Under the pieces are notes generated by a model. The model worked only from the letters and a program-made list of their open reading frames with translations. It was not told where the DNA came from and searched no databases. A program made the translations under genes and the position numbers. This document shows positions 950 to 40,045 of a stretch of 64,000 bases of DNA, in pieces (the first letter of the stretch is position 1; each line of letters begins with the position of its first letter). Source of the stretch: Leptolyngbyaceae cyanobacterium (GTDB taxonomy: Bacteria; Cyanobacteriota; Cyanobacteriia; Phormidesmidales; Phormidesmidaceae); contig CBDHHL010000048.1 in the NCBI GenBank assembly GCA_965263355.1, positions 128,001 through 192,000 on the forward strand, in the 5' to 3' direction.

Positions 950-3900
950 ATGTGGCTAAAAATTCCGATTGATCTAGAAACCGACGCGGCTAACGTTTAT
1001 CTTTTGCCGGAGTTAGATCGATGGATAGCGCTGGGGCTTTTGTCTAAAGAACAAACCCTCAGTTTGGGGCGTAAGCTGTGTAGCCCTCTGCCCATTGGTT
1101 ACAAAGTTCCGACAGAGGTAACGGAAGAACCTGTCGAGCTTGACCCGGTAACCAGGCCTGAAACTATGGTTACAACATCGGTATCACCAGGTAAGCCAAT
1201 ATTTTCGCGCTTCAAATCCCATCTAGTGCAGTCCTTTTTGGCAGAGGTCAGCGTGCTATGGCTACTGTTTTTGGGTGTGTTTTTAGTGGTGGTATCGTCT
1301 GGGGTATTAGCCGCCAGTCAGTGGCAATCATTTTCAACCGTCGGTCAGTACGGCATTTTATTGGTTTATACCCTTGCTTTTGGTGGTGCCAGCTTCTGGG
1401 CAGCTCGCCAAGCCAAGCTCCAAACAACGGCTCACATGCTTAAGGCTGCGACGTTGCTCTTGATTCCCCTCAACCTATGGATGATGGATGCTCTGGGTTT
1501 AGCCAAGGCTTCAGCAGGGCTAGCTGGTTTAGCAACCATCAGCTTAAGTGCCTTAACCCTGGCATTAGCTCCACATAAAAAAGCCGGGTTGAACTTAATG
1601 GGCTTAAGTTGGCTGCATTGGGGCTGGGGAATTACACCATGGCCACTGATTGCGACATACCTGGGCACAACGGGCAGCGCTATAAATCTGGTTCAAGCAG
1701 TTCCAGAGATTGCAGTTGAAGACAATCGTCAGCCGGAACTTAGATCTGGGGATATTTTAGTTGCGATCGCTCTCCTAATCCTACTGGTACGAAGTGTATG
1801 GATAGCACAAATACCAATGGCTCAGTTGGGATTAGCCATCGGTATTTGTGGCTGGATGCTCTGTCGACTCAGGCAGTATCCCCTATGGCCTCAAATTGGA
1901 GCAGGCTTGATGCTAATTGGCTGGTTAGTAGCGATAGGTCAACAACCGATACAGGCAATCGGGATAAGTGGCCTAGCCAGCTGGCTACTATTGGCACGGC
2001 TACGCCAACAAACTCAGGAACGAGCCCAGCTGCACACATTAGCAATACTATGGCTAGTCGGTTTACAAGCATGCGGCCTGCTGTGGTTGACCTTGCCCCT
2101 AGCGTTCAGACAAGTACTCTTAACAGCCTTAGGTCATCTCAGCCCAGACCCCGTCAGCACTTTACAGTTTGCAGGCCTATGGCTTTATGGCTATGTCAGT
2201 CTAATGCTTATGGCCGCTAGCCAGTTTCAACGCAATGGTCAAACTGCTTGGTCCAGGCTGACGGCCTATCTGGCACTCAGTATCAGTGCCTTATTAGTAC
2301 TCTGGGCATCCCCACAAATCGACTCTGTTTTATTCACCGCTAGTTTGCTTGGTCTGACGCTTACCGTGGGGAGCATTACCCATTTGTATCGTGGCATGAC
2401 TCCCTGGCTGATTTATGGCACTCACAGTGCAGCCGTCGTCACCATCCTCAGCGGCATACATGTACTCAGCCAGGGACTGGGGGGATGGTCTGAACCACAA
2501 TGGGCCATGGTATTGATCGCATTAACAACCCTAGAGTGGCTCAGCAATATCGGCATCCGGCATCTCCAATGGCGACAGTCAGCCTGGTATCTAGGTTTAG
2601 GCCTGGGTGTGATTGCCTATAGTCTGTTATTCAACAACTGGGGTAGTTGGCTCAACCTTATCTGGCTCGTTATCCCTGGAGTCCTGACTGTGTTGGCCTA
2701 CCGACAACCAGTTGTAAGCGGGTCTCCCCAAATCACCAGCAGGCTGACAGTAATTGCCCTAGGTGGACAGCTTTTACTGGTTAGTTCCTGGCCAATGGCA
2801 ACCATTGCATGGTTTATCGGGGCTGGATTGCTATTTCTCCATAGCTGTCGCTGGCCTACCCAGAAAGCGTTGCCAACACTGGCCATAGGGTTTGCTGTAT
2901 GGGGTAGCCATACAGCTAGCATTTGGCTTTGGGCCATGGCTGAGCCATGGCCTAATGTAATCGCCCGACTATGTTTAGTCACTGCCTTATTGGCATCAGC
3001 CCTTAGCCTTCTTGCCCGGTCCTTAGAGTATCGTTCGAAACCGTTACTGCAGGTTTATGGCATCGTCAGTCGTAACTGGGGGCAAGCATTAGCGATCACA
3101 CTAAATCTCAGTCTTACCCTGATCATAGTGCTGATCTATGCCCTGGGGCTGGATTCTATCCACTGGCTTGTGGGCATCCAGTCGACCGAGTGGGTTTTAC
3201 GCTACGGAATCGCCGCCATAATAGTTGTATTGGCTAGCCTTTTTAATAGGCGACGGCTAACCAACCTAAACTTCTGGGAACTAGCCCATGGCATTGGTCT
3301 GCTGGTCACCATGGGCCTACTCCTATGGCGCAAGGAAACGAATCCTCACCTATTGGGAACGGTCATGGTCGCCCTGGCCGTAATCACCCAGCTCATGGGG
3401 ACAGTCTCTGTCGCCAAAAAACAACATCCTTACCCATCAAGCTGGCACTATATTCCCCTGGCCTATGGTGCTTTGGGCTTAGGCTTAAGCCATCTAAGCT
3501 TTACCATAACAACAGGCATCTATGCCGCTGTGGTTGGCATTGTTACTCTGTCCATTGGGAGACGACAGGTAACGTTACACCCCTGGGGTTATGGGGGGCT
3601 GGGTCTGCTTTCCCTGGGGCTCTATGAGCTGATGATCTACCGTCTACTGCAAGCAAGCGGAGGTGCAATTGGGGATGGATTCACGCTACTGGCATGGATG
3701 GGGGGTGCGATCGCAGCCTTCTATTTACTCTGCCACCGTTGGATTCAACGCTACAGCCAACTGTCAGCAACTAACATTGGCATTGTCTCACTGCTCCATT
3801 GGCTACTCGCTGTAGTACTCGCAACTATCGCTATGGTCAGCGGTCACAGTCGCTGGGGACTCGTCCTCTGGCTAGGGATCACTAGCTTATTGGCCCTCTA

Positions 3901-4807
3901 CGCTGAACTTCGGGGTAATTATCGTTGGTTCCCAAATCCTAACCCTAACGCCGAACAACGTCATCAATTTAATCGTATCGATAGCCATAAGCAATGGACC
4001 TGGAGTGGACTGATCATCGCCACCGTTGCCATTCCCTATGGAATCATGCAGACATTACCAAACCTAACCTTTATTAGAGGGTGGGGAGCATTGTTAATTT
4101 GTGGTCTGAGCCTCATTATACATAGGCTGCCATGGCAACAATGGGGCTGGCCCATACGTCCCTGGCAAAAAATGGCATTGAGTTGGCCACTACTCAGCAT
4201 TCTGCTCAGCATCTTTACCATCAAAACCCAGGGTTTGCTACTGGGGGGAGCCTTCTATGCATTCATGGCTAGACGGATCCGGGCAGTGCGTCTCAGCTAT
4301 CTAAGTCTAGCCTTACTCAACTGGGCTCTGATACGTTATCTCCTCGACCAAGGATGGCTAACTCTATTATGGGCAGGCATCATACTAGGCTTATCAGGGT
4401 TGTACATCCTTGAGGTAGATCCTCGCTGGCAAACGATTTCAGCTCGTCAAGAACGGCATCGTTTACGCAGTTTTGCCACCTTACTCATAGGGCTAACAGC
4501 AATTTTTCAGGCCGAAACCGCATCTCCTATTATTATTGGCCTCAGTTTACTGATCAGTTTTGGCTTTATTAGCTTTGGTTTAGCTACCCAAGTACGGGCT
4601 TATCTTTACACAGGTACTCTGACCTTCGCACTGCAGATACTCCGTACCATTGCCATATTTATCAGTACTGATGGCCGTATGCTTTGGGCCATTGGCATCA
4701 TGCTTGGCATCACCCTGATTTGGATTGCGGCCACCTTTGAAGCCCGTCGAACTCAAATTAGTCAGCTACTTAACCAGTGGTCAGAGATGTTGCAAAATTG
4801 GGACTAG
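950..4807 (+). CDS. Very large polytopic membrane protein (DUF2157-like), function unknown
   Basis: 1285 aa, almost continuously hydrophobic; N-terminal LDRWIALGLLS and SVLWLLFLGVFLVVVSSGVLAASQW resemble cyanobacterial DUF2157 proteins. Confidence 0.7.
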   Translation: MWLKIPIDLETDAANVYLLPELDRWIALGLLSKEQTLSLGRKLCSPLPIGYKVPTEVTEEPVELDPVTRPETMVTTSVSPGKPIFSRFKSHLVQSFLAEVSVLWLLFLGVFLVVVSSGVLAASQWQSFSTVGQYGILLVYTLAFGGASFWAARQAKLQTTAHMLKAATLLLIPLNLWMMDALGLAKASAGLAGLATISLSALTLALAPHKKAGLNLMGLSWLHWGWGITPWPLIATYLGTTGSAINLVQAVPEIAVEDNRQPELRSGDILVAIALLILLVRSVWIAQIPMAQLGLAIGICGWMLCRLRQYPLWPQIGAGLMLIGWLVAIGQQPIQAIGISGLASWLLLARLRQQTQERAQLHTLAILWLVGLQACGLLWLTLPLAFRQVLLTALGHLSPDPVSTLQFAGLWLYGYVSLMLMAASQFQRNGQTAWSRLTAYLALSISALLVLWASPQIDSVLFTASLLGLTLTVGSITHLYRGMTPWLIYGTHSAAVVTILSGIHVLSQGLGGWSEPQWAMVLIALTTLEWLSNIGIRHLQWRQSAWYLGLGLGVIAYSLLFNNWGSWLNLIWLVIPGVLTVLAYRQPVVSGSPQITSRLTVIALGGQLLLVSSWPMATIAWFIGAGLLFLHSCRWPTQKALPTLAIGFAVWGSHTASIWLWAMAEPWPNVIARLCLVTALLASALSLLARSLEYRSKPLLQVYGIVSRNWGQALAITLNLSLTLIIVLIYALGLDSIHWLVGIQSTEWVLRYGIAAIIVVLASLFNRRRLTNLNFWELAHGIGLLVTMGLLLWRKETNPHLLGTVMVALAVITQLMGTVSVAKKQHPYPSSWHYIPLAYGALGLGLSHLSFTITTGIYAAVVGIVTLSIGRRQVTLHPWGYGGLGLLSLGLYELMIYRLLQASGGAIGDGFTLLAWMGGAIAAFYLLCHRWIQRYSQLSATNIGIVSLLHWLLAVVLATIAMVSGHSRWGLVLWLGITSLLALYAELRGNYRWFPNPNPNAEQRHQFNRIDSHKQWTWSGLIIATVAIPYGIMQTLPNLTFIRGWGALLICGLSLIIHRLPWQQWGWPIRPWQKMALSWPLLSILLSIFTIKTQGLLLGGAFYAFMARRIRAVRLSYLSLALLNWALIRYLLDQGWLTLLWAGIILGLSGLYILEVDPRWQTISARQERHRLRSFATLLIGLTAIFQAETASPIIIGLSLLISFGFISFGLATQVRAYLYTGTLTFALQILRTIAIFISTDGRMLWAIGIMLGITLIWIAATFEARRTQISQLLNQWSEMLQNWD

Positions 4808-30375: not shown

Positions 30376-31395
30376 CTAGGAGAGAGCATCCTTTTGATTA
30401 CTATCCCCCGGTAGCATCGATTTCTCAGTACGGGCGAGAAAATCAGGTACCAGAACTTCGCTAAATCCGGCGATAAATGCGATCGCAAAGTATAAATACT
30501 TGGACTGGGCTTCAGCTTCGCTGGGGTTAAACCCGGATACTACTACCACCTCTGACTGGATAAGGGAAACGGCCAAAAGGCTAAAGGCAGTGCCCACCAC
30601 CGGTTTAAAGAAGCCGATAAAGAAAGGAATCATCGATTGGGAGCGGTTACGGTTTTCTAGCTTTCGCGATCGCAACATCACACTGACGATACTGCCCAAA
30701 CCACCGGCAGCTAATACCAGCTGAATATATTGCCATTCCTGGGATGAAAAAAGTTCTAATTGGGAACCCTGGGTGTCTCCTTCAACGATCGCCGTAGCCC
30801 CAGACGGCTCACCTTCAACCACAAGATCGTCAACCGAGTCTTCCTCTGAGGTTTCTGACGGCTCATCAACCGGCTGAGCATGGTTAATACCATGCTGATA
30901 GCCGATATTATATTGATTCGACAAAAACAGTCGCACAGCAGTGGTACTACCAATTAACAACGAAATGGTAATAGTAAACCAGGTAAGGCCTGAAATCAGC
31001 TGTGCAGCCGGGGACCCTCCAGCACTAAGAACAGCCACCAGAGGATTGCGGTAGATCCGAATCTCACGCGCAATCCGTTTACGAATGTCCCGTGCCAGAG
31101 ATACCCGTTCTGTCATGGACATAGCTGGAGACTGGTGAGCTTTCGGAGCAGCTTCGGTCGGCAACAACAAACTGACCGCCAGTTGCATCATCGGCATTAG
31201 CATCTGATCGTTAGTCAGTTCCAGGTGGGGGACTTGCTCAAGCAATTTGCCCAGCTCGCGATAAGCAGGTTTCGATAGATGCTCAGACGCCAGTCCCTGC
31301 TCAATACGCTCAATGAGTTCTCGCGCATCCTGGCGAATAACAAGATCAATATTATCTATTAGGCCTGATGGTAGACCTATTGTATTTGCAGACAT
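30376..31395 (-). CDS. Membrane protein (about 4 TM), function unknown
   Basis: 339 aa; AGGLGSIVSVM, GFFKPVVG, FAIAFIAGFSE. Confidence 0.8.
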   Translation of the reverse strand: MSANTIGLPSGLIDNIDLVIRQDARELIERIEQGLASEHLSKPAYRELGKLLEQVPHLELTNDQMLMPMMQLAVSLLLPTEAAPKAHQSPAMSMTERVSLARDIRKRIAREIRIYRNPLVAVLSAGGSPAAQLISGLTWFTITISLLIGSTTAVRLFLSNQYNIGYQHGINHAQPVDEPSETSEEDSVDDLVVEGEPSGATAIVEGDTQGSQLELFSSQEWQYIQLVLAAGGLGSIVSVMLRSRKLENRNRSQSMIPFFIGFFKPVVGTAFSLLAVSLIQSEVVVVSGFNPSEAEAQSKYLYFAIAFIAGFSEVLVPDFLARTEKSMLPGDSNQKDALS

Positions 31396-31949: not shown

Positions 31950-34493
31950 ATGGGAAGACGTAGTTCTAAGCGGTCTTTCAGACAGTTATCCAATATTGCG
32001 AAACCGTCATTGGGTGACCAAGTCGACCAATGTTATGAGCAGGGCCTTTACCAACAGGCACTGACTAAGTTAAAGCAAGCTCAGAAGCTCGATCAGGCCA
32101 AGGATATTAGTCTGAGCGAGGCAGATATATTACTAGCTTGGGGGATCGATCAGGCGGAAAAAGCAGCCTATTCCATGGCCGAGAAAACACTACGGCAAGC
32201 CATGGAATTAGGGGCATTTGGTCAGCAAGGGGAAGCCTATTATTGGTTGGCTAAATGCTTATTGGAAATGGAGCAGCCCCAAGCGGCACTGGAGTTAGTC
32301 CAAACAGCTTTTAACACCAATCAACTCCACAAACAACAGGGAGGGTGCTATCTCAAACTGTTGGTAATCAATGACCAAATAGACACGGTCGCTACCTTGA
32401 TCGAAACCAAGAAAAATCGATTCTATGCGGCCCATCTCCACTGGGCACGGGGAATACTCTCGCTCCATCAAGAATCTCCTAAAGATGCTCTTGCCCACTT
32501 TAAAAAAATGGGGAATCGTACTACCTTGGGCGATTGGCCCACTGCCTGGACAGTGTATGCGAAACAGCAAGCAGGTCAGTGGGCAGATTCAAGTTTAGAG
32601 CAAATATTGGGTCTTCAGAATTCATCCTTAAGGCATTCACCCTTCTCAACATTTAAACCAAAGCAAGCCAAACATCCGGCCATCCTGCGTCTGACTTTGA
32701 CACAGCTAGCCCACACCTTTAGTCATGATTTTTCAGAGCATGTGCCCCTGGATGAACTGACCCCAGTTGAGGAAGAGGCTGCCATAGTGCTACAAACGCT
32801 GCGCATGATCGACCAGGACGACGTTCATGATGCGGCCCATCTGTTTTTAGAGTTTTTCAAGGATATCTCAGATTCCTTTCCCCAATTTCAAGAGCTGCAT
32901 GATCCGCTGATGACCTTGGCTGGGACAGCTGCTATGGGTACCCATGAACCCAACTATGCGGAAAAATTCTGGTCCCGTTTGGTGAAACCTACACTTCAGG
33001 ATCCTCAAATTGCCATTCATCTGCGTCAGGCCATGTTTGAAAATGGTTCTGACCATGCTGCCATCGGTGTCATTAAGCAATTAAGTCAATGGGTCGAAGC
33101 ACAAACCACTTGGACCGAATCGCAACGACAGGCTATCGTGGCTCACCTCCACTGCTGGACCTGTGATCACTTAATTAATCTCAAAAAACTTGGCAAAGCT
33201 GAACAAGTCGTTAAGTCAGCCATTAAACTGGCCCCTGAATCACCTTCAGTGGTGGGTCGCCAAGGGTTACTGGCCGCAAGACAGAAACGATATAAGCAAG
33301 CGATTCCCTTACTAACGCAGTCCTTAAAGGGCGGTTCTAGCGTTGTCAATATTTATGAGGAACTGGTTGATTGTCTTGAAAAAACCGGTGATAAGACTAC
33401 TCTCAAGCAGGTGCGTCGTCAATATGGTAAGTCCTTTGGCGATTTAGATACGGAACCGGATCTGCCTCGCTGGCAGGAGATTTTTACCTATCGTCTCTTC
33501 TTTATGCTGCAAGACGCTACTGGGAATGTAGAGCGCAATGATTTTCCTAGTCGTGCCATCAAGATTTTTGTCGACGCTGCAACTGATACACCCAATAAAG
33601 ATCAGCGGGTGACCTTTGACCAAACTAAAGCTGCCGACCAATGGGAAGCGCTACTTGCGCCCTTGAGTCCTGAGCAGCAGGTGCCCGTGCTCCAGGCCAT
33701 TGGTTTAGTAATGGCCATCTATGCCAAACGGAAAAAAGGTTTGGCTGCGTTGCAAACCCGTTACCAGACTCAGCTCATTAGCCTAATTGACGACCATCCC
33801 ACAGCTCAAATGGCAAACCTGGTATGTCTGACAGTCAAAGAAAAGAAGGCAGAGCGCCTGTCTGTGGCAATTAATACTTATCTTAAGTCAGTAGCTCAGC
33901 CTCACCAGGCCATTGCTCGGTTGCAACTCAACGTACGCTGGTTTGTAACCACATCTGTTTTGCTATCGTGGTTAGACCAAGCTTTGGCCAAAGATCCTCA
34001 AAATCCATTGTTGCTGTTGGCTAAGGCTACTGTCTACCCCTATGAGACGCCTGAGTACGAGACGCTTTTTGACCAGGGCTTTGAGTTGGCTCGACGCTTA
34101 CAGGATGCTGAAGCTCTGGATGCCTACCGCGATGAAGAATGGTTGCAGGGCCAGGCGATGACCCGTTCTGCTATGTCGAGTATGAGTCGCTCGGGGGGGC
34201 CTCCGTCCATGGGAGACATGGTGGAAATGATTCGCAAAATGGCCCAGGCTCAGTTTGGCGATGAGGTGCCGCCGGAGTTGATAGAGCAACTAGTTATGCA
34301 AATGATGGCGGCTGAATTAGGAGGTGCCATGCCACCGGGTGGCCCCTTTGGCGGTCCCCCTGATGGTTTTCCCCTGCCGCCTATATTTGTTGGAGGGTTT
34401 GAAGAGCCAGATGACTTTGGCGATGACTTTTTTGGGCCACCGCCGGGGGCGAAAAAATCGAAAAAGTCTAAACGGTCTCGACGCTCTCGGTAG
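31950..34493 (+). CDS. Large TPR / alpha-solenoid protein with Met-Gly-Pro-rich tail
   Basis: TPR-like segments (AYYWLAKCLLEMEQPQAALELV; AEQVVKSAIKLAPES; LDQALAKDPQNP); GGAGG RBS upstream. Confidence 0.85.
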   Translation: MGRRSSKRSFRQLSNIAKPSLGDQVDQCYEQGLYQQALTKLKQAQKLDQAKDISLSEADILLAWGIDQAEKAAYSMAEKTLRQAMELGAFGQQGEAYYWLAKCLLEMEQPQAALELVQTAFNTNQLHKQQGGCYLKLLVINDQIDTVATLIETKKNRFYAAHLHWARGILSLHQESPKDALAHFKKMGNRTTLGDWPTAWTVYAKQQAGQWADSSLEQILGLQNSSLRHSPFSTFKPKQAKHPAILRLTLTQLAHTFSHDFSEHVPLDELTPVEEEAAIVLQTLRMIDQDDVHDAAHLFLEFFKDISDSFPQFQELHDPLMTLAGTAAMGTHEPNYAEKFWSRLVKPTLQDPQIAIHLRQAMFENGSDHAAIGVIKQLSQWVEAQTTWTESQRQAIVAHLHCWTCDHLINLKKLGKAEQVVKSAIKLAPESPSVVGRQGLLAARQKRYKQAIPLLTQSLKGGSSVVNIYEELVDCLEKTGDKTTLKQVRRQYGKSFGDLDTEPDLPRWQEIFTYRLFFMLQDATGNVERNDFPSRAIKIFVDAATDTPNKDQRVTFDQTKAADQWEALLAPLSPEQQVPVLQAIGLVMAIYAKRKKGLAALQTRYQTQLISLIDDHPTAQMANLVCLTVKEKKAERLSVAINTYLKSVAQPHQAIARLQLNVRWFVTTSVLLSWLDQALAKDPQNPLLLLAKATVYPYETPEYETLFDQGFELARRLQDAEALDAYRDEEWLQGQAMTRSAMSSMSRSGGPPSMGDMVEMIRKMAQAQFGDEVPPELIEQLVMQMMAAELGGAMPPGGPFGGPPDGFPLPPIFVGGFEEPDDFGDDFFGPPPGAKKSKKSKRSRRSR

Positions 34494-34517
34494 GAGCATT
34501 ACATATAACGCCCCTAC
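34490..34517. repeat. REP-like imperfect palindrome supplying the TPR gene stop codon
   Basis: GTAGGAGCATTACATATAACGCCCCTAC; its TAG is the stop at 34491-34493. Confidence 0.75.
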
Positions 34518-34549
34518 GCCATCAAATTTTAATTATGAGCTAATAAATC

Positions 34550-34846
34550 ATGACCACGCCGTTTGAACAGTTAGGGATTGCTCCAGAGGCTAGTGCCAAA
34601 GAGATTAAACGGGCTTACCATGCCAAATTGAAAGAATTTCCGGCCCACACCCATCCCGAGGAGTTTAAGGCGATTCGAGCTGCCTACGATGCTGTCCGCC
34701 AGGGTAGTACCGTCACGGTAGAAGAGTTCTTTAAACGCAAGCCGTTAGAGGCTAGTTTTGACGATAAGATCCTGACTAGCCTTAGGGAGCAGGCCACTGC
34801 TAAGATCCAAGTTGACCTGAAAACCCTGACCCGTCTTACCTTTTAG
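34550..34846 (+). CDS. Small J-domain (DnaJ-like) protein, non-canonical
   Basis: PFEQLGIAPEASAKEIKRAYH...FKAIRAAYDAV; no HPD. Confidence 0.85.
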   Translation: MTTPFEQLGIAPEASAKEIKRAYHAKLKEFPAHTHPEEFKAIRAAYDAVRQGSTVTVEEFFKRKPLEASFDDKILTSLREQATAKIQVDLKTLTRLTF

Positions 34847-34856
34847 CGATAACGTA

Positions 34857-35348
34857 ATGTCTCAGACTCCTCGCGATCGCATCGCCCAGCGTCGCCAACT
34901 GCAAAAGCAGCAATCCCAGATCTTTTTAGACTTGTTGCCAGTGCTGGATGATTTAGACCGTGCCTGTAACCATTGGCAACAGGCACAGCAGTCCCAAGAA
35001 ACACCTGTGGAGAAGAAAAGTTCGGTACCTTGGTGGCGTAAGATATTTAACTGGAACACGAGCCAGACTCTTGACCAATCCACCGAACTCAATGCCATGG
35101 TCAAGAGTGCCCATGACGGTGTGTCCCTCATTCGTCAGTCACTACTGGAGGTATTGGAGCGTCAGGCGGTCACCCCCATTGAAACCTTAGGTCAGCCATT
35201 TGACCCTAAACATATGAATGCCATGGGTCGAGAAGCGAGTCCTGATACGTCTCCTAATACGGTGATTAAAGAAATTCTCAAGGGATATCGCTGGCAAGAT
35301 CGGGTGTTAAGAGAGGCTCAGGTAATTGTTGCAGACAGGTCTAAGTGA
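34857..35348 (+). CDS. GrpE-family nucleotide exchange factor (short)
   Basis: LLPVLDDLDRA, GQPFDPKHMNAM, KGYRWQDRVLREAQVIV. Confidence 0.92.
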   Translation: MSQTPRDRIAQRRQLQKQQSQIFLDLLPVLDDLDRACNHWQQAQQSQETPVEKKSSVPWWRKIFNWNTSQTLDQSTELNAMVKSAHDGVSLIRQSLLEVLERQAVTPIETLGQPFDPKHMNAMGREASPDTSPNTVIKEILKGYRWQDRVLREAQVIVADRSK

Positions 35349-35379
35349 AATCTATCGAATGCCTAAATTCATCCCTACA

Positions 35380-35407
35380 GTAGGAGCATTGCATACAATG
35401 CCCCATC
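35380..35407. repeat. REP-like imperfect palindrome
   Basis: GTAGGAGCATTGCATACAATGCCCCATC. Confidence 0.7.
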
Positions 35408-35449
35408 CAACCAGATTTTTTTACCTTATAAAATCCCTATCTCTAGACT

Positions 35450-37021
35450 ATGGCCATTATCGGTATTGATCTCGGTACGACTAATTCTGTTGTTGCTGCC
35501 CTGGAAGGGGGGCAACCCTGGGTAATTCCGGATGATGATGATGAACTGCTGCTACCCTCCTGTGTGGGTTTAGACAATGGTGGCAAGCTATTGGTAGGAG
35601 ATTATGCCCTACGACAATATGCCTCTGCGCCAGAGCGTACCATCAAGTCCATTAAGCGTCAGATGGGAACAGACTATGAGGTCACACTGGGTGAGCAAGT
35701 ATATTCCCCCCAGGCAATTTCAGCCATGATTTTGCGCACCCTGAAGGAACAGGCAGAAACCGTCTTGGAAGAGCCAGTGACCCAAGCGGTGATTACGGTG
35801 CCTGCATACTTTACCGATGCCCAGCGGCAGGCAACCAAGGAAGCTGGAGAGATTGCGGGGCTAGAAGTATTACAAATCTTAAATGAGCCTACCGCTGCCG
35901 CCTTGGTTTTCGAAAACCGTAGTGAAGATGGGGAAACGGTTTTAGTATATGACCTTGGTGGAGGCACCTTTGATGTCTCAATTGTGGACATTACCGGAGA
36001 TGTAACAGAGGTATTGGCCAGCCATGGTAATAATCGCCTCGGTGGAGACGACTTTGACCGCCAGCTTCAGCGTCACTTAATCAATAAGTTTCAGCAGATC
36101 AACGGCGAGAGTTTACCTGACGACCCGGCGATTGAAGCACGACTATTACGGGCGGCAGAAACCGCCAAAATTGAGCTGAGTGAGCATGGATTTGTGGCAG
36201 TCAGGGAACCATTTTTGGTCAGCCAGGGGAGTACGGCCTTACACTTGGAAACCGAAATTGCCCGAGAAGATTTTGAGCATTTGATTACGCCCATGCTCAA
36301 GGAAACGTTGGAGGCGATTGATCGCGCCCTGAGTGATGCATCTATGGCAGCCAACGATCTCAATCGGGTTGTGTTGGTGGGGGGCTCCACCCGGATTCCA
36401 CTGGTACAACGGATGGTGCAAAACCATTTGTCAGGGGTACCTGTGAGTAGTTTTGAGCCAGACCTCTGTGTGGCGATGGGGGCAGCGGTGCAGGCGGGAG
36501 TTCTGTCTGGGGCTGAAATCGAGTCGATTTTGGTGGATGTTGTGCCCCATTCGTTGGGGATTGCGGTCATGATGGATGTGGGCATGGGCATGCCCATGCC
36601 TGGTATGTTTAGTACGATTATTCCGAGGAATACGGTGATTCCGACATCTCGCTCTGAGGTATATAAGACCTCTAGAAACAATCAGGAGAAAGTGGAGATA
36701 GAGGTTTATCAAGGGGAGAATGCTATTGCTAAGGAAAATGTCCCCTTGGGCTCTTTTATGGTTGAGGAGTTACCGCCTAAACCGGCGGGGGCAATCCAAG
36801 TGGAGGTGACGTTTGATTTTGATATTAATGGGATTTTGACGGTTACCGCGACGGAAAAGGGTGCGGGAAAGCAGGGGTCTCTGGTGGTGAATGATGCGGA
36901 TACAGGACGGTTGTCTAGCAATGAACTGCTCCAGGCGCAGGAGAGTCTGGAGCAGTTGTTTGACCTAAGTAAGAGTCCTTTGATGGATGTGTTGGCTAGC
37001 GCAGTTGAAGAAGAAGAATAG
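35450..37021 (+). CDS. Specialised Hsp70 (DnaK-like) chaperone, 523 aa
   Basis: IGIDLGTTNS, TVPAYF, NEPTAAA, YDLGGGTFDVS, LGGDDFD, LVGGSTRIP, IIPRNT, VYQGE, FDFDINGIL. Confidence 0.95.
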   Translation: MAIIGIDLGTTNSVVAALEGGQPWVIPDDDDELLLPSCVGLDNGGKLLVGDYALRQYASAPERTIKSIKRQMGTDYEVTLGEQVYSPQAISAMILRTLKEQAETVLEEPVTQAVITVPAYFTDAQRQATKEAGEIAGLEVLQILNEPTAAALVFENRSEDGETVLVYDLGGGTFDVSIVDITGDVTEVLASHGNNRLGGDDFDRQLQRHLINKFQQINGESLPDDPAIEARLLRAAETAKIELSEHGFVAVREPFLVSQGSTALHLETEIAREDFEHLITPMLKETLEAIDRALSDASMAANDLNRVVLVGGSTRIPLVQRMVQNHLSGVPVSSFEPDLCVAMGAAVQAGVLSGAEIESILVDVVPHSLGIAVMMDVGMGMPMPGMFSTIIPRNTVIPTSRSEVYKTSRNNQEKVEIEVYQGENAIAKENVPLGSFMVEELPPKPAGAIQVEVTFDFDINGILTVTATEKGAGKQGSLVVNDADTGRLSSNELLQAQESLEQLFDLSKSPLMDVLASAVEEEE

Positions 37022-37068: not shown

Positions 37069-37108
37069 AACCGCGTCGGGGCGTTGCATGCAACGCCCCG
37101 ACGCGGTT
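37069..37108. repeat. Perfect 40-bp palindrome (REP-like)
   Basis: AACCGCGTCGGGGCGTTGCA|TGCAACGCCCCGACGCGGTT. Confidence 0.9.
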
Positions 37109-37362: not shown

Positions 37363-37789
37363 ATGGCCGTTCCCGATATCTACACTTGCCGAGCGGTTTT
37401 TAGACACACTGACCGCTTCGTTTGAGTCTCCAGCCAAGCGCCCGGTGGTCTTTCATATTTGGGGCTTGGGCTTAGCCATTAAACCCGACCTACACGAAGC
37501 ACTCTATAACAAGGGCATTTCGTTGGCTAATCTGGGCCGATACGAGGACGCCATCAACGCCTATGACCAGGCCCTTGCCATCAAACCGGACTATCACAAC
37601 GCGCTCCATAACAAAGCCTGTGCCAACGCTCTTTCTAACAAGCCTGACGCATCTCTGACATTTCTCCAAAAAGCAATTGAGCTTGCCCCTGAAAAATATT
37701 GCGAACTCGCCAAAACCGACACCGACTTCAACAATCTTCGCAACAACCCACGTTTTCAGACCCTCATCACCAGCTCTGAATTAACCTGA
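37363..37789 (+). pseudogene. Remnant of a P-loop NTPase-TPR protein (frameshift plus internal deletion)
   Basis: ATG 37363 gives MAVPDIY; the +1 frame gives LAERFLDTLTASFESPAKRPVVFHIWGLG fused directly to TPRs LAIKPDLHEALYNKG...ALHNKAC...AKTDTDFNNLR. Confidence 0.6.
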
Positions 37790-38172: not shown

Positions 38173-39555
38173 ATGCGTCACCTATCTACCTTTCTACTCA
38201 CCCTCCTGCTCCTCACCAACGGCTCCATCCATAAAACCCCGGCCCAGCCGCCAGAACCAGGCAACCCTGACAGCACAATTATTGAGACAGTCCCCTTACC
38301 AGAGATCGAAGCAGAAACCTTACCCGATAACGTCGCTCAGCGAATCCAAACCGACCTCGCCCAACGCCTCAGTCTAGCCACCAACACAACCATCACTATT
38401 GACAACATCACCATCGCCCGCCACAGCCGCGAAACCTGGTCCGACAGCTGCCTTGGTCTCAGCAGTCCCGCCGAATCATGCCTAGCCGCCCTCACCGAAG
38501 GCTGGCAAGTAGAAGCCATCTACCAAAGTCAACAGTTCTTCTACCGCACCGACCTCAGCGGTAACCACATCCGCCGCTCTACCCTCAGTCATAATCTCCC
38601 CCCCTCCCTCCAAACCAGAATTCTCCAAACCGCCCAGACCAAAGGCTTTGGCCCCAACCTATCCATTGCCGACGCCCAAACCAAACTATGGGGCGGCTGC
38701 TACGGATTACCCACTGAAGCAGACGTATGTGCGGCCATCGGCATCTATGGCTGGCAAGCCATTGTCACTGACGGTGACCATTACTGGATTTATCACACCG
38801 ACAATCTTGGTAACACCATTCTCCTCAACGAACTCGCCAGCAGCAACACCGCCATTCCCAGCTTTATTACCCCATCTGAGTTTGAGACACTTAAGCGCGA
38901 AACCACCTTTCAAAGCAGTGTCACAGGGGGCATCGCTAACTTAGACGATGTTTACAGCCTCCATCAGAATGGCGCACTATCAGTCCAGAGCCCAAGCGAT
39001 TATGGCAAGCCCCAAAGACTACGTCGCGCTACCATCAGCCCACCACAGCTAGACAACTTCTACAATCAGCTTACAGACAACAACTTTAATACCTTCAATG
39101 GTCTGCTCTACTTACCCAAATTAGACGCCGCAGCCTACCGTATTGTCAATCTCAGAGCGCAAAACGGTCATGTCGCCTTTGCCGACTTTATTTTCAGTGA
39201 TTTGCCACCCCAATTGCAGGCAATCACCCAAAGCTGGGAAACTCTCCAGGCTCAGACTGAAACAACGACCCTTATCTCTGCCAACAATCGTCCAACTGAG
39301 CTACCGGTAAACATTCAAAGCCAAATACTTTTTAATCTGGCCGTTTACCTACGGGTACCCGTTGAGCAGGTTAGCATTCAAAATTATAGCCAACAAACCT
39401 GGTCTGACGGCTGCCTGGGCCTTGGTGGTCCCACTGAGCTATGTCTGGCGGCCCTGACCGAAGGTTGGCACGTCGAAGCAGTCGATACCGAAACAAATCA
39501 AACCTATGGTTATCGAACTAACCTAAACGGCGCTCAGATTCGACGTGAGCCTTAA
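38173..39555 (+). CDS. Secreted protein with three Cys-pair repeat domains
   Basis: Signal peptide; TWSDSCLGL..PAESCLAALTEGW, LWGGCYGL..ADVCAAIGIYGW, TWSDGCLGLGGPTELCLAALTEGW. Confidence 0.85.
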   Translation: MRHLSTFLLTLLLLTNGSIHKTPAQPPEPGNPDSTIIETVPLPEIEAETLPDNVAQRIQTDLAQRLSLATNTTITIDNITIARHSRETWSDSCLGLSSPAESCLAALTEGWQVEAIYQSQQFFYRTDLSGNHIRRSTLSHNLPPSLQTRILQTAQTKGFGPNLSIADAQTKLWGGCYGLPTEADVCAAIGIYGWQAIVTDGDHYWIYHTDNLGNTILLNELASSNTAIPSFITPSEFETLKRETTFQSSVTGGIANLDDVYSLHQNGALSVQSPSDYGKPQRLRRATISPPQLDNFYNQLTDNNFNTFNGLLYLPKLDAAAYRIVNLRAQNGHVAFADFIFSDLPPQLQAITQSWETLQAQTETTTLISANNRPTELPVNIQSQILFNLAVYLRVPVEQVSIQNYSQQTWSDGCLGLGGPTELCLAALTEGWHVEAVDTETNQTYGYRTNLNGAQIRREP

Positions 39556-39577: not shown

Positions 39578-40045
39578 CTAATTCTCTGAACGCTGTTCCA
39601 AAAATCTGGCAAAAGCCTTTAATTCGGCAGCCACCTGACTAAATATTTGTCGAACCTCGCCTACTAATTCACCAATTCTCTCAGACTCGAATTATTCAGA
39701 ATAAACATGGCGAACAATATGCCGAAATGCTCGATACTTGTCTAGGCCTTGCAAACTAGACACAGAAATAATGGCAGGACGTATCGAATTTACCTCCATT
39801 GCCATCTGCTGTAATAATTGCTGATGCCAGTTTTTGCCAGCTGGTTGTTCTCCATCAATATCGCGAGCGATTATTTCAAACAAACGCTCTACACCGTTGT
39901 AGGCACCTTGCAAATTTAAAGCTGCACTATCAACATACAGTTCATCATTGGTTTGCTCAAATCTTTGCCAAGCCATTACAGCACGTTCAATCGCAATGTT
40001 AATTGACTGAAATTCTTTGACAATGCGTTGGGCTAACCTACTCAA
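39578..40045 (-). pseudogene. HEPN (HepT-like) ribonuclease toxin with in-frame stop
   Basis: ALNLQGAYNGVERLF, WHQQLLQQM, YRAFRHIVRHVY; TAA at 39692-39694, then the frame continues FESERIGELV...FLEQRSEN*. Confidence 0.85.

Follow-up and report, generated by a model that had tools for sequence, protein, structure and literature searches.

A conserved and apparently uncharacterised Hsp70 system with its own TPR protein, J-like protein and GrpE

Introduction

Can an Hsp70 work in a closed chaperone cycle of its own when its J-protein carries no HPD motif and its lid is missing? This question is raised by four neighbouring genes, encoding a TPR protein, a J-like protein, a GrpE and an Hsp70, in a stretch of 64,000 nucleotides from a Leptolyngbyaceae cyanobacterium (assembly GCA_965263355.1, contig CBDHHL010000048.1, positions 128,001 to 192,000), hereafter called the window. 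An earlier note on this DNA had read them as a private, orthogonal cycle with the TPR protein as client or substrate adaptor, possibly serving as a stress- or phage-sensing module. Both peculiarities touch on wider problems: in a 2026 review, whether HPD-deviant J-proteins are accidents or selected is presented as open, with HPE as the sole tolerated change (PMC13254874), and truncated bacterial DnaK derivatives are given no known function in another (PMC13580251).

Here, we describe a real, conserved and specialised Hsp70 system that is apparently uncharacterised in the literature searched. No description of the operon was found in that search, supplements aside; Barriot et al. 2020 (J Mol Biol) lay outside its scope and may list the family.

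Results

The four genes recur as a unit

The open reading frames (ORFs) of the TPR-J-GrpE-Hsp70 operon were all intact and co-oriented, at the positions and with the order, lengths and gaps (56, 10 and 101 bp) given by the earlier note. The operon and its relevant parts are as follows:

31950..34493, + strand: TPR protein of 847 residues, an all-helical solenoid (Pfam TPR; AlphaFold; generic PDB matches only); residues 101-431 are the predicted clamp of the J tail, and a Met-rich helical end, an acidic linker and a basic tail are also present
34550..34846, + strand: J-like protein of 98 residues, with a J-domain of the DjlC-type short loop at about residues 1-50; the C-terminal half is the part predicted to bind the TPR protein
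34637..34648, + strand: FPAH codons of the J-like protein, aligned at the position held by YHPD in DnaJ and by CHPE in DjlC
34857..35348, + strand: GrpE of 163 residues, short form without the N-terminal extra domain (Pfam GrpE, 107 bits)
35031..35063, + strand: Trp-rich, predicted amphipathic insert of GrpE, a possible membrane anchor
35450..37021, + strand: Hsp70 of 523 residues, in a clade sister to HscC, with intact catalytic and allosteric residues and a GrpE loop; the lid is lost
35873..35875, + strand: Gln142 codon of the Hsp70, equivalent to DnaK Arg167, which binds the aspartate of HPD

Conserved synteny was examined by a J-profile scan of species-representative genomes, which yielded 188 relatives; the synteny counts refer to the best 80 of these 188 loci, nearly all labelled cyanobacterial. 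The TPR gene adjoined the J gene in 77 of the 80, the three misses being contig edges. GrpE adjoined J in 72, and the eight loci without it comprised five contig edges, one ORF-calling miss (L083, where GrpE is present) and two loci of Prochlorothrix. Of these 72 loci, 50 had the Hsp70 gene next after GrpE, seven had it further off in the locus, nine did not contain it and six were cut short there by an edge. All ten genomes checked that had no nearby copy encoded the Hsp70 elsewhere, with 63-94% identity, compared to 40-50% for their DnaKs. Both Prochlorothrix genomes carried the operon in two pieces, TPR-J and GrpE-Hsp70, with TPR and J still adjacent to each other.

Beyond the cyanobacteria, relatives in which the J-protein reads PPE at the HPD position were sought by a pattern search of metagenomes, from which the best 80 of 284 loci were taken. 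Among the non-cyanobacterial loci of at least 5 kb, GrpE and Hsp70 were present in 23 of 25 and all four genes in 19 of 25. The best 120 matches of this PPE-type J included seven with an organism name, all of them Chloroflexota. The layout noted in the window is thus not due to chance, as it recurs in dozens of genomes. A permuted order, GrpE-Hsp70-TPR-J, was seen in one metagenome group (L110-L114, L116), where one GrpE reaches 630 residues.

In comparison with the nearest relative (L005), all four genes were under purifying selection, with nonsynonymous substitution rates (dN) of 0.05-0.17, synonymous rates (dS) of 1.2-1.9, which are near saturation, and dN/dS ratios of about 0.04-0.10. Pairwise distances of the four proteins, taken across 48 loci, correlated at 0.88-0.97. 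In 85 cyanobacterial loci, a zinc-ribbon/TPR gene was the sole further neighbour to be conserved; no HPD-type J, DUF1266, GTPase, GAP1 or FNIII gene was conserved there.

Occurrence was patchy: a search of 401 cyanobacterial genomes, counting the centre genome, yielded 11 with J and 12 with TPR, all of at least 3.8 Mb, and the operon was present on five plasmids of Acaryochloris and Nostoc. A plasmid search with the PPE-type J gave no non-cyanobacterial operon copy among 22 records, and none of seven pattern matches in viral contigs was a relative. Acaryochloris sp. Moss Beach carries the operon on three plasmids, and the copies L003 and L004 have broken TPR or Hsp70 frames, which may reflect decay or assembly error. 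The junction between GrpE and Hsp70 is a hotspot of insertions in Nostocales, where it holds Uma2-type, toxin-antitoxin-like, AAA-ATPase and caspase-like genes (L012, L024, L025, L030, L034, L036, L043).

The Hsp70 lies outside DnaK and beside HscC

The window Hsp70 scored 505.5 bits against Pfam HSP70 and fell below all NCBIfam cut-offs for DnaK and HscA (546.7 vs 822.55 bits for TIGR02350). Trees were built from 66 and then 32 selected rows. In the 32-row tree, the cyanobacterial operon Hsp70s (support 100/100) joined those of other bacteria (98/97) in one clade (98/94), which was sister to six HscCs (100/100) and apart from DnaK. These six HscCs, a thin sampling, formed a branch of their own (100/100) with the operon Hsp70s outside it. 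The tree thus agreed with the earlier suggestion of a non-housekeeping Hsp70.

For residue comparisons, 56 complete Hsp70s were used, those below 480 residues or cut by contig ends being left out. The equivalents of DnaK D8, T12, K70, E171, D194, T199, P143, D148, R151, D393, V436 and L484 were conserved in 55-56 of the 56. The AlphaFold model (mean pLDDT, the predicted local distance difference test score, 77.6, lower in the substrate domain) comprised the ATPase domain and a full beta-sandwich, followed only by a helix at 490-508 and a low-confidence tail, with no lid, and it adopted the ATP-docked state (template modelling score 0.83 to the DnaK-ATP structures 4B9Q and 5NRO). With its catalytic and allosteric residues intact, this Hsp70 looks active, as judged from alignment and model.

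Several traits were shared with HscC, namely the deletion of DnaK 76-101, an L1,2 insertion (8-9 residues here; 4-8 are quoted for HscC in PMC8215388), the absence of the cleft salt bridges and Asn in place of D481, the last found in 55 of the 56. The substrate domain of the window protein has a net charge of -5, like HscC, vs -1 for DnaK, a comparison made on the window sequence only. Unlike HscC, in which the GrpE signature loop is absent, the operon Hsp70s had this loop at full length, with R261 in 55 of the 56. Three DnaKs were kept in each of five hosts checked.

A topology grouping the cyanobacterial operon Hsp70s with two host DnaK paralogues was rejected (approximately unbiased test, p 1e-13). 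Other unusual Hsp70s were also encountered, that is, a further divergent protein of 731 residues in Anabaena azotica (L106), and DnaK paralogues of 893-1049 residues with long C-terminal extensions in three Leptolyngbya-like genomes (L097-L099).

A J-domain without HPD and a changed Arg167 position

The Pfam DnaJ match of the J-like protein (E 1.7e-5, 25.3 bits) lay under the cut-off of 27.8 bits, and the protein aligned gap-free to DjlC. Alignment with DnaJ and DjlC placed PAH, which is neither HPD nor HPE, at the HPD positions. Of 85 loci, 82 had FPAH as this loop, and FPPA, YPPA and CPAH were each seen in one. Among wider J relatives (the best 150 of 2474 profile hits), PPE occurred 77 times at this position, PPD 19, SPE 11 and PAH 6 times. 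In DnaK, according to PMC8215388, Asp35 of the J-domain bonds Arg167 and Gln378, and basic J residues meet E206, E217 and D477. The docking residues of the J-like protein were kept (K20, K40 and R43, corresponding to DnaJ R22, K48 and K51), as were the Hsp70 equivalents of E206, E217, D477, Q378 and P419. Gln took the place of Arg167 in 55 of the 56 cyanobacterial members, whose J-protein lacks the acid; all 29 relatives compared that have the PPE-type J, in which the acid is kept, carried Arg there. The J-like protein is a putative trigger of the Hsp70.

As a separate observation, the PPE-type J-domain also heads proteins of 430-480 residues that end in a SEC-C-like cysteine motif (P0194, P0202, P0203, P0216 and others), possibly a form of the system in which J and TPR are fused.

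The J tail is predicted to sit in a groove of the TPR protein

The AlphaFold model of the TPR protein was an all-helical solenoid (mean pLDDT 85). Fold searches against the PDB returned generic TPR and solenoid matches only, with the C-terminal 340 residues barely covered, and an Atlas search with the whole protein gave only generic TPR or unnamed clusters at a recognition value under the reliable level. No enzyme, output or effector domain was found by Pfam, fold and Atlas searches. The tail is basic, with a mean of seven Lys/Arg in the last 15 residues of 77 sequences. An STI1/DP-like domain at the C-terminus was considered and discarded, since 31 fragments gave no Pfam match (E up to 1) and no usable Atlas hit.

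Modelling of TPR residues 18-792 together with the J-like protein gave a complex score of 0.78, compared with 0.00 for the best of three controls. Of 157 solved complexes, 116 come up to the mark used for this score, as do 2 of 215 mismatched pairs; these counts are roughly valid here, where our own alignments were used. Model runs agreed in at least 94% of contacts, with a partner pLDDT of at least 82. Residues 48-98 of the J-like protein touched TPR residues 101-431, and residues 1-47 made no confident contact. Homology of this tail extends to the PPE family, with a probability of 99.6 across 101 columns. The J tail is thus predicted by the model to occupy a groove of the TPR solenoid, leaving the J-domain free.

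A probable reduced form in the window

The 56 Hsp70s fell into distinct forms. In the long form (33 of 56), the Hsp70 has a C-terminal helical bundle, or lid, ending in a conserved aromatic motif, the GrpE has an extra N-terminal domain and the fifth gene, encoding the zinc-ribbon/TPR protein, lies directly downstream; one further long-form case is at a contig edge. The window-like form (18 of 56, and one further at an edge) is lidless, with a short GrpE and without the fifth gene. Three of the 56 combine a short GrpE with a degenerate lid, again without the fifth gene. A search with one query did not find the fifth gene in four short-form genomes, and the same query found it in a long-form control. 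In four of four long-form genomes with a relocated Hsp70, the fifth gene stayed beside it.

Forms with a short GrpE are placed to one side of a branch with weak support (80), so that the correlation between lid, GrpE and fifth gene mostly represents one event; lid loss itself needs more than one. Loss is the inferred direction because non-cyanobacterial Hsp70s carry the helical bundle. The window form would accordingly be a five-gene machine reduced by the lid, the GrpE N-terminal domain and the zinc-ribbon/TPR subunit. The earlier description of a lidless, four-gene system therefore holds for the window and applies only to a derived subgroup, most sampled members having a lid and the fifth gene.

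The window GrpE (Pfam cut-off 25.8 bits) lacks about 90 N-terminal residues of its long-form relatives. Its insert carries Trp in 72 of 73 GrpEs, and the hydrophobic moment exceeded 0.5 in 53 of 73, a count made without a control set. GrpE may bind membranes through this Trp-rich insert.

Discussion

A dedicated cycle and the points against it

On balance, we consider it probable that the operon encodes a closed chaperone cycle, in which the J-like protein, whose tail the TPR solenoid is predicted to hold, would deliver and trigger only this Hsp70 on a specific client. TPR protein and J-like protein would together form a two-piece targeting factor, the free surface of the solenoid holding the client and the J-domain docking on the usual Hsp70 site via the conserved charged residues. 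The PAH/Gln pair would replace HPD/Arg167 and insulate the cycle from DnaK and DnaJ. The lidless Hsp70 would bind briefly, which would suit remodelling or hand-off over bulk refolding, and GrpE would reset the cycle, possibly at the membrane via its Trp-rich insert. Of the cycle proposed in the earlier note, its travelling as a unit and its position outside DnaK have held, and the PAH/Gln pair would make it orthogonal; of the two roles then left to the TPR protein, that of adaptor now appears likely, given the predicted contact with the J tail.

More tentatively, and with odds slightly short of even, the operon could represent an exception to the HPD rule, that is, a widespread and undescribed Hsp70 subfamily in which the J-protein triggers via a rewired PAH/Gln pair (elsewhere PPE/Arg) within a two-gene TPR-J complex, and in which a DnaK-orthogonal cycle has survived lid loss.

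A number of points weigh against these proposals. They are predictions from genes and models. Any HPD change except HPE abolishes stimulation, according to PMC13254874 and PMC8215388, and under this published rule the J-like protein may be inactive. One locus, L017, pairs FPAH with Arg at the 167 position. Most of the PAH/Gln change falls on a single branch and so counts as one event, not as statistical covariation, and the Arg comparison is limited by the PPE loci having been chosen by their PPE pattern. Loss of both cleft salt bridges would make GrpE less necessary. The TPR interface columns are only modestly more conserved (0.64) than those nearby (0.52) or further on (0.59), and the TPR proteins of cyanobacterial and other loci show weak homology, which rests on position, length and repeat type.

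Alternative explanations

The TPR protein might itself be the client, the J-like protein tethering the Hsp70 to it and the cycle switching the solenoid between states, as in a regulator or sensor. The predicted J contact is large and would place the J-domain on the TPR protein; the TPR tail is basic, and HscC prefers positively charged peptides according to PMC8215388, its substrate-domain charge being matched here; moreover, except for the fifth gene, no other conserved candidate client gene lies nearby. Against this stands the lack of any output or effector domain among the search results for the TPR protein, the fold searches having barely covered its C-terminal 340 residues, and we regard this explanation as unlikely.

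Another possibility, which we hold to be improbable, is that of a pseudo-J adaptor like Pam16, which would bridge the TPR protein and the Hsp70 or block the docking site without triggering hydrolysis. His33 and Asp35 are both lost, and such changes abolish stimulation according to reviews; the Asn at D481 could relax the clamp and increase basal ATPase activity, as D481A does in DnaK. Against this, the loop hardly varies between loci, both partners have kept the remainder of the docking surface, and the loci show no conserved J gene of the HPD type.

A role of the operon in defence against phages or in another kind of conflict, with the TPR protein sensing an invader protein, seems to us decidedly improbable. 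Its patchy occurrence and plasmid copies would fit, a few neighbours look defensive, and HSP70-GrpE pairs with DnaJ or TPR fusions feature in predicted conflict systems (PMC7159879). This contrasts with the lack of an effector domain in the searches made and with PADLOC 2.0, which gave no matches for TPR, J and GrpE and one weak, partial match of the Hsp70 to PDC-M61B. Of 113 neighbours, left after four of 117 ORFs shadowing operon genes had been dropped, 14 matched PADLOC. Most of these were kinases of a generic kind, Uma2-type proteins and ABC ATPases, and about four are plausibly real in this count without a control set. The window context is housekeeping, with the upstream order kept in two relatives, and the parts were retained after the operon had split, which argues for a housekeeping-like accessory role. 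The phage-sensing module of the earlier note thus found no backing, neither as a PADLOC match nor as a clear defence island. Finally, the Hsp70 might be a superfluous or degenerating copy of DnaK served by the housekeeping DnaJ and GrpE, as the lost lid and the two plasmid copies with broken frames might suggest; this is largely refuted by purifying selection on all four genes, the separate clade and the changed Arg167.

Comparison with known systems

Among the closest known counterparts of the dedicated cycle preferred here is HscC with DjlB and DjlC of E. coli, which belongs to the sister clade, has a dedicated J-protein encoded nearby and shares the DjlC short loop in addition to the Hsp70 traits listed above. 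Unlike HscC, the operon Hsp70s form a separate clade and come with a GrpE loop and a GrpE gene, a large TPR partner and no conserved DUF1266 gene nearby, and the window copy is lidless. The operon J-protein has 98 residues and PAH or PPE, whereas DjlB and DjlC are long, tail-anchored and HPE-bearing (PMC8215388). HscC is also associated with a cadmium/UV resistance phenotype. The operon Hsp70 is thus like HscC in being dedicated and is not an HscC member.

With DnaK-DnaJ-GrpE, the operon shares the full J/GrpE/Hsp70 set, conserved catalytic and allosteric residues and the ATP-docked fold; it differs in having no HPD, lid or tail, Gln for Arg167, sub-cut-off NCBIfam scores and a patchy distribution in hosts that keep three DnaKs. 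The Shewanella AtcJ is a short J-protein whose C-terminal extension binds a partner from its own operon (PMC6715715), which resembles the J tail contact predicted here; in contrast, the AtcJ of the AtcJ-AtcABC system has a functional J-domain and uses housekeeping DnaK, and the present operon brings its own Hsp70 and GrpE. In the HSP70-GrpE theme of the GAP1-N2 GTPase systems, Hsp70 and GrpE genes likewise occur together with DnaJ or TPR modules, but that theme is mainly actinobacterial and firmicute (PMC7159879), and no conserved GTPase, GAP1 or FNIII was present at the operon loci.

The earlier note had held that dedicated Hsp70s generally lack a GrpE of their own. Private GrpEs do have precedents (PMC11019930, PMC7159879); DnaK1-DnaJ3-GrpE of Nostoc punctiforme (PMC9239167) and DnaK2 of M. 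xanthus with its own GrpE (PMC11019930) are dedicated regulatory Hsp70 cycles. These are DnaK-type, whereas the operon Hsp70 lies outside the DnaKs sampled, in a tree without the M. xanthus protein. Among eukaryotes, DnaJC7 and P58IPK combine a TPR arm and a J-domain as Hsp70 targeting factors, in single chains with HPD. The operon splits arm and J-domain over two genes.

The operon makes the questions of HPD deviance and of truncated DnaKs testable with four purified proteins, for which it offers an invariant non-HPD loop, a matching Hsp70 change, L017 as a counter-example from nature and naturally occurring versions with and without a lid. A set of Hsp70, J and GrpE insulated in this way would also be a useful tool for engineering dedicated chaperone circuits.

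Genomic context of the operon

The operon matches the window in guanine-cytosine content and sits in a housekeeping region of a Leptothoe/Leptolyngbya-like chromosome, the remaining window genes being housekeeping ones, e.g., those for SecY, ribosomal proteins and dehydroquinate synthase. The upstream gene order is shared with the two closest named relatives, Leptolyngbya sp. Heron Island J and Leptothoe sp. PORK10. A promoter scan gave four sites vs 7.2 expected. Palindromes were found at three places:

37069..37108, + strand: perfect 40-nt palindrome 3' of the Hsp70 gene, terminator-like
34490-34517 and 35380-35407: degenerate relatives of this palindrome, in operon gaps

No fourth copy was present in the window at up to seven mismatches on the strand scanned. 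The three palindromes resemble cyanobacterial REP-like elements.

Two window ORFs, at 950-4807 (1285 residues) and 38173-39555 (460 residues), had no Pfam match at the thresholds used. Divergent from the operon, positions 30376-31395 encode a probable membrane protein of 339 residues without a confident Pfam match, kept at this place in L005 and L006 only. Directly after the operon, at 37445-37789, lies a TPR ORF of 114 residues with a 'TPR end-of-group' domain; it is distinct from the fifth gene and probably the remnant of a longer gene, a relative of 588 residues lying downstream in L006. A HepT-like (HEPN) gene is also present in the window, at 39692-40045.

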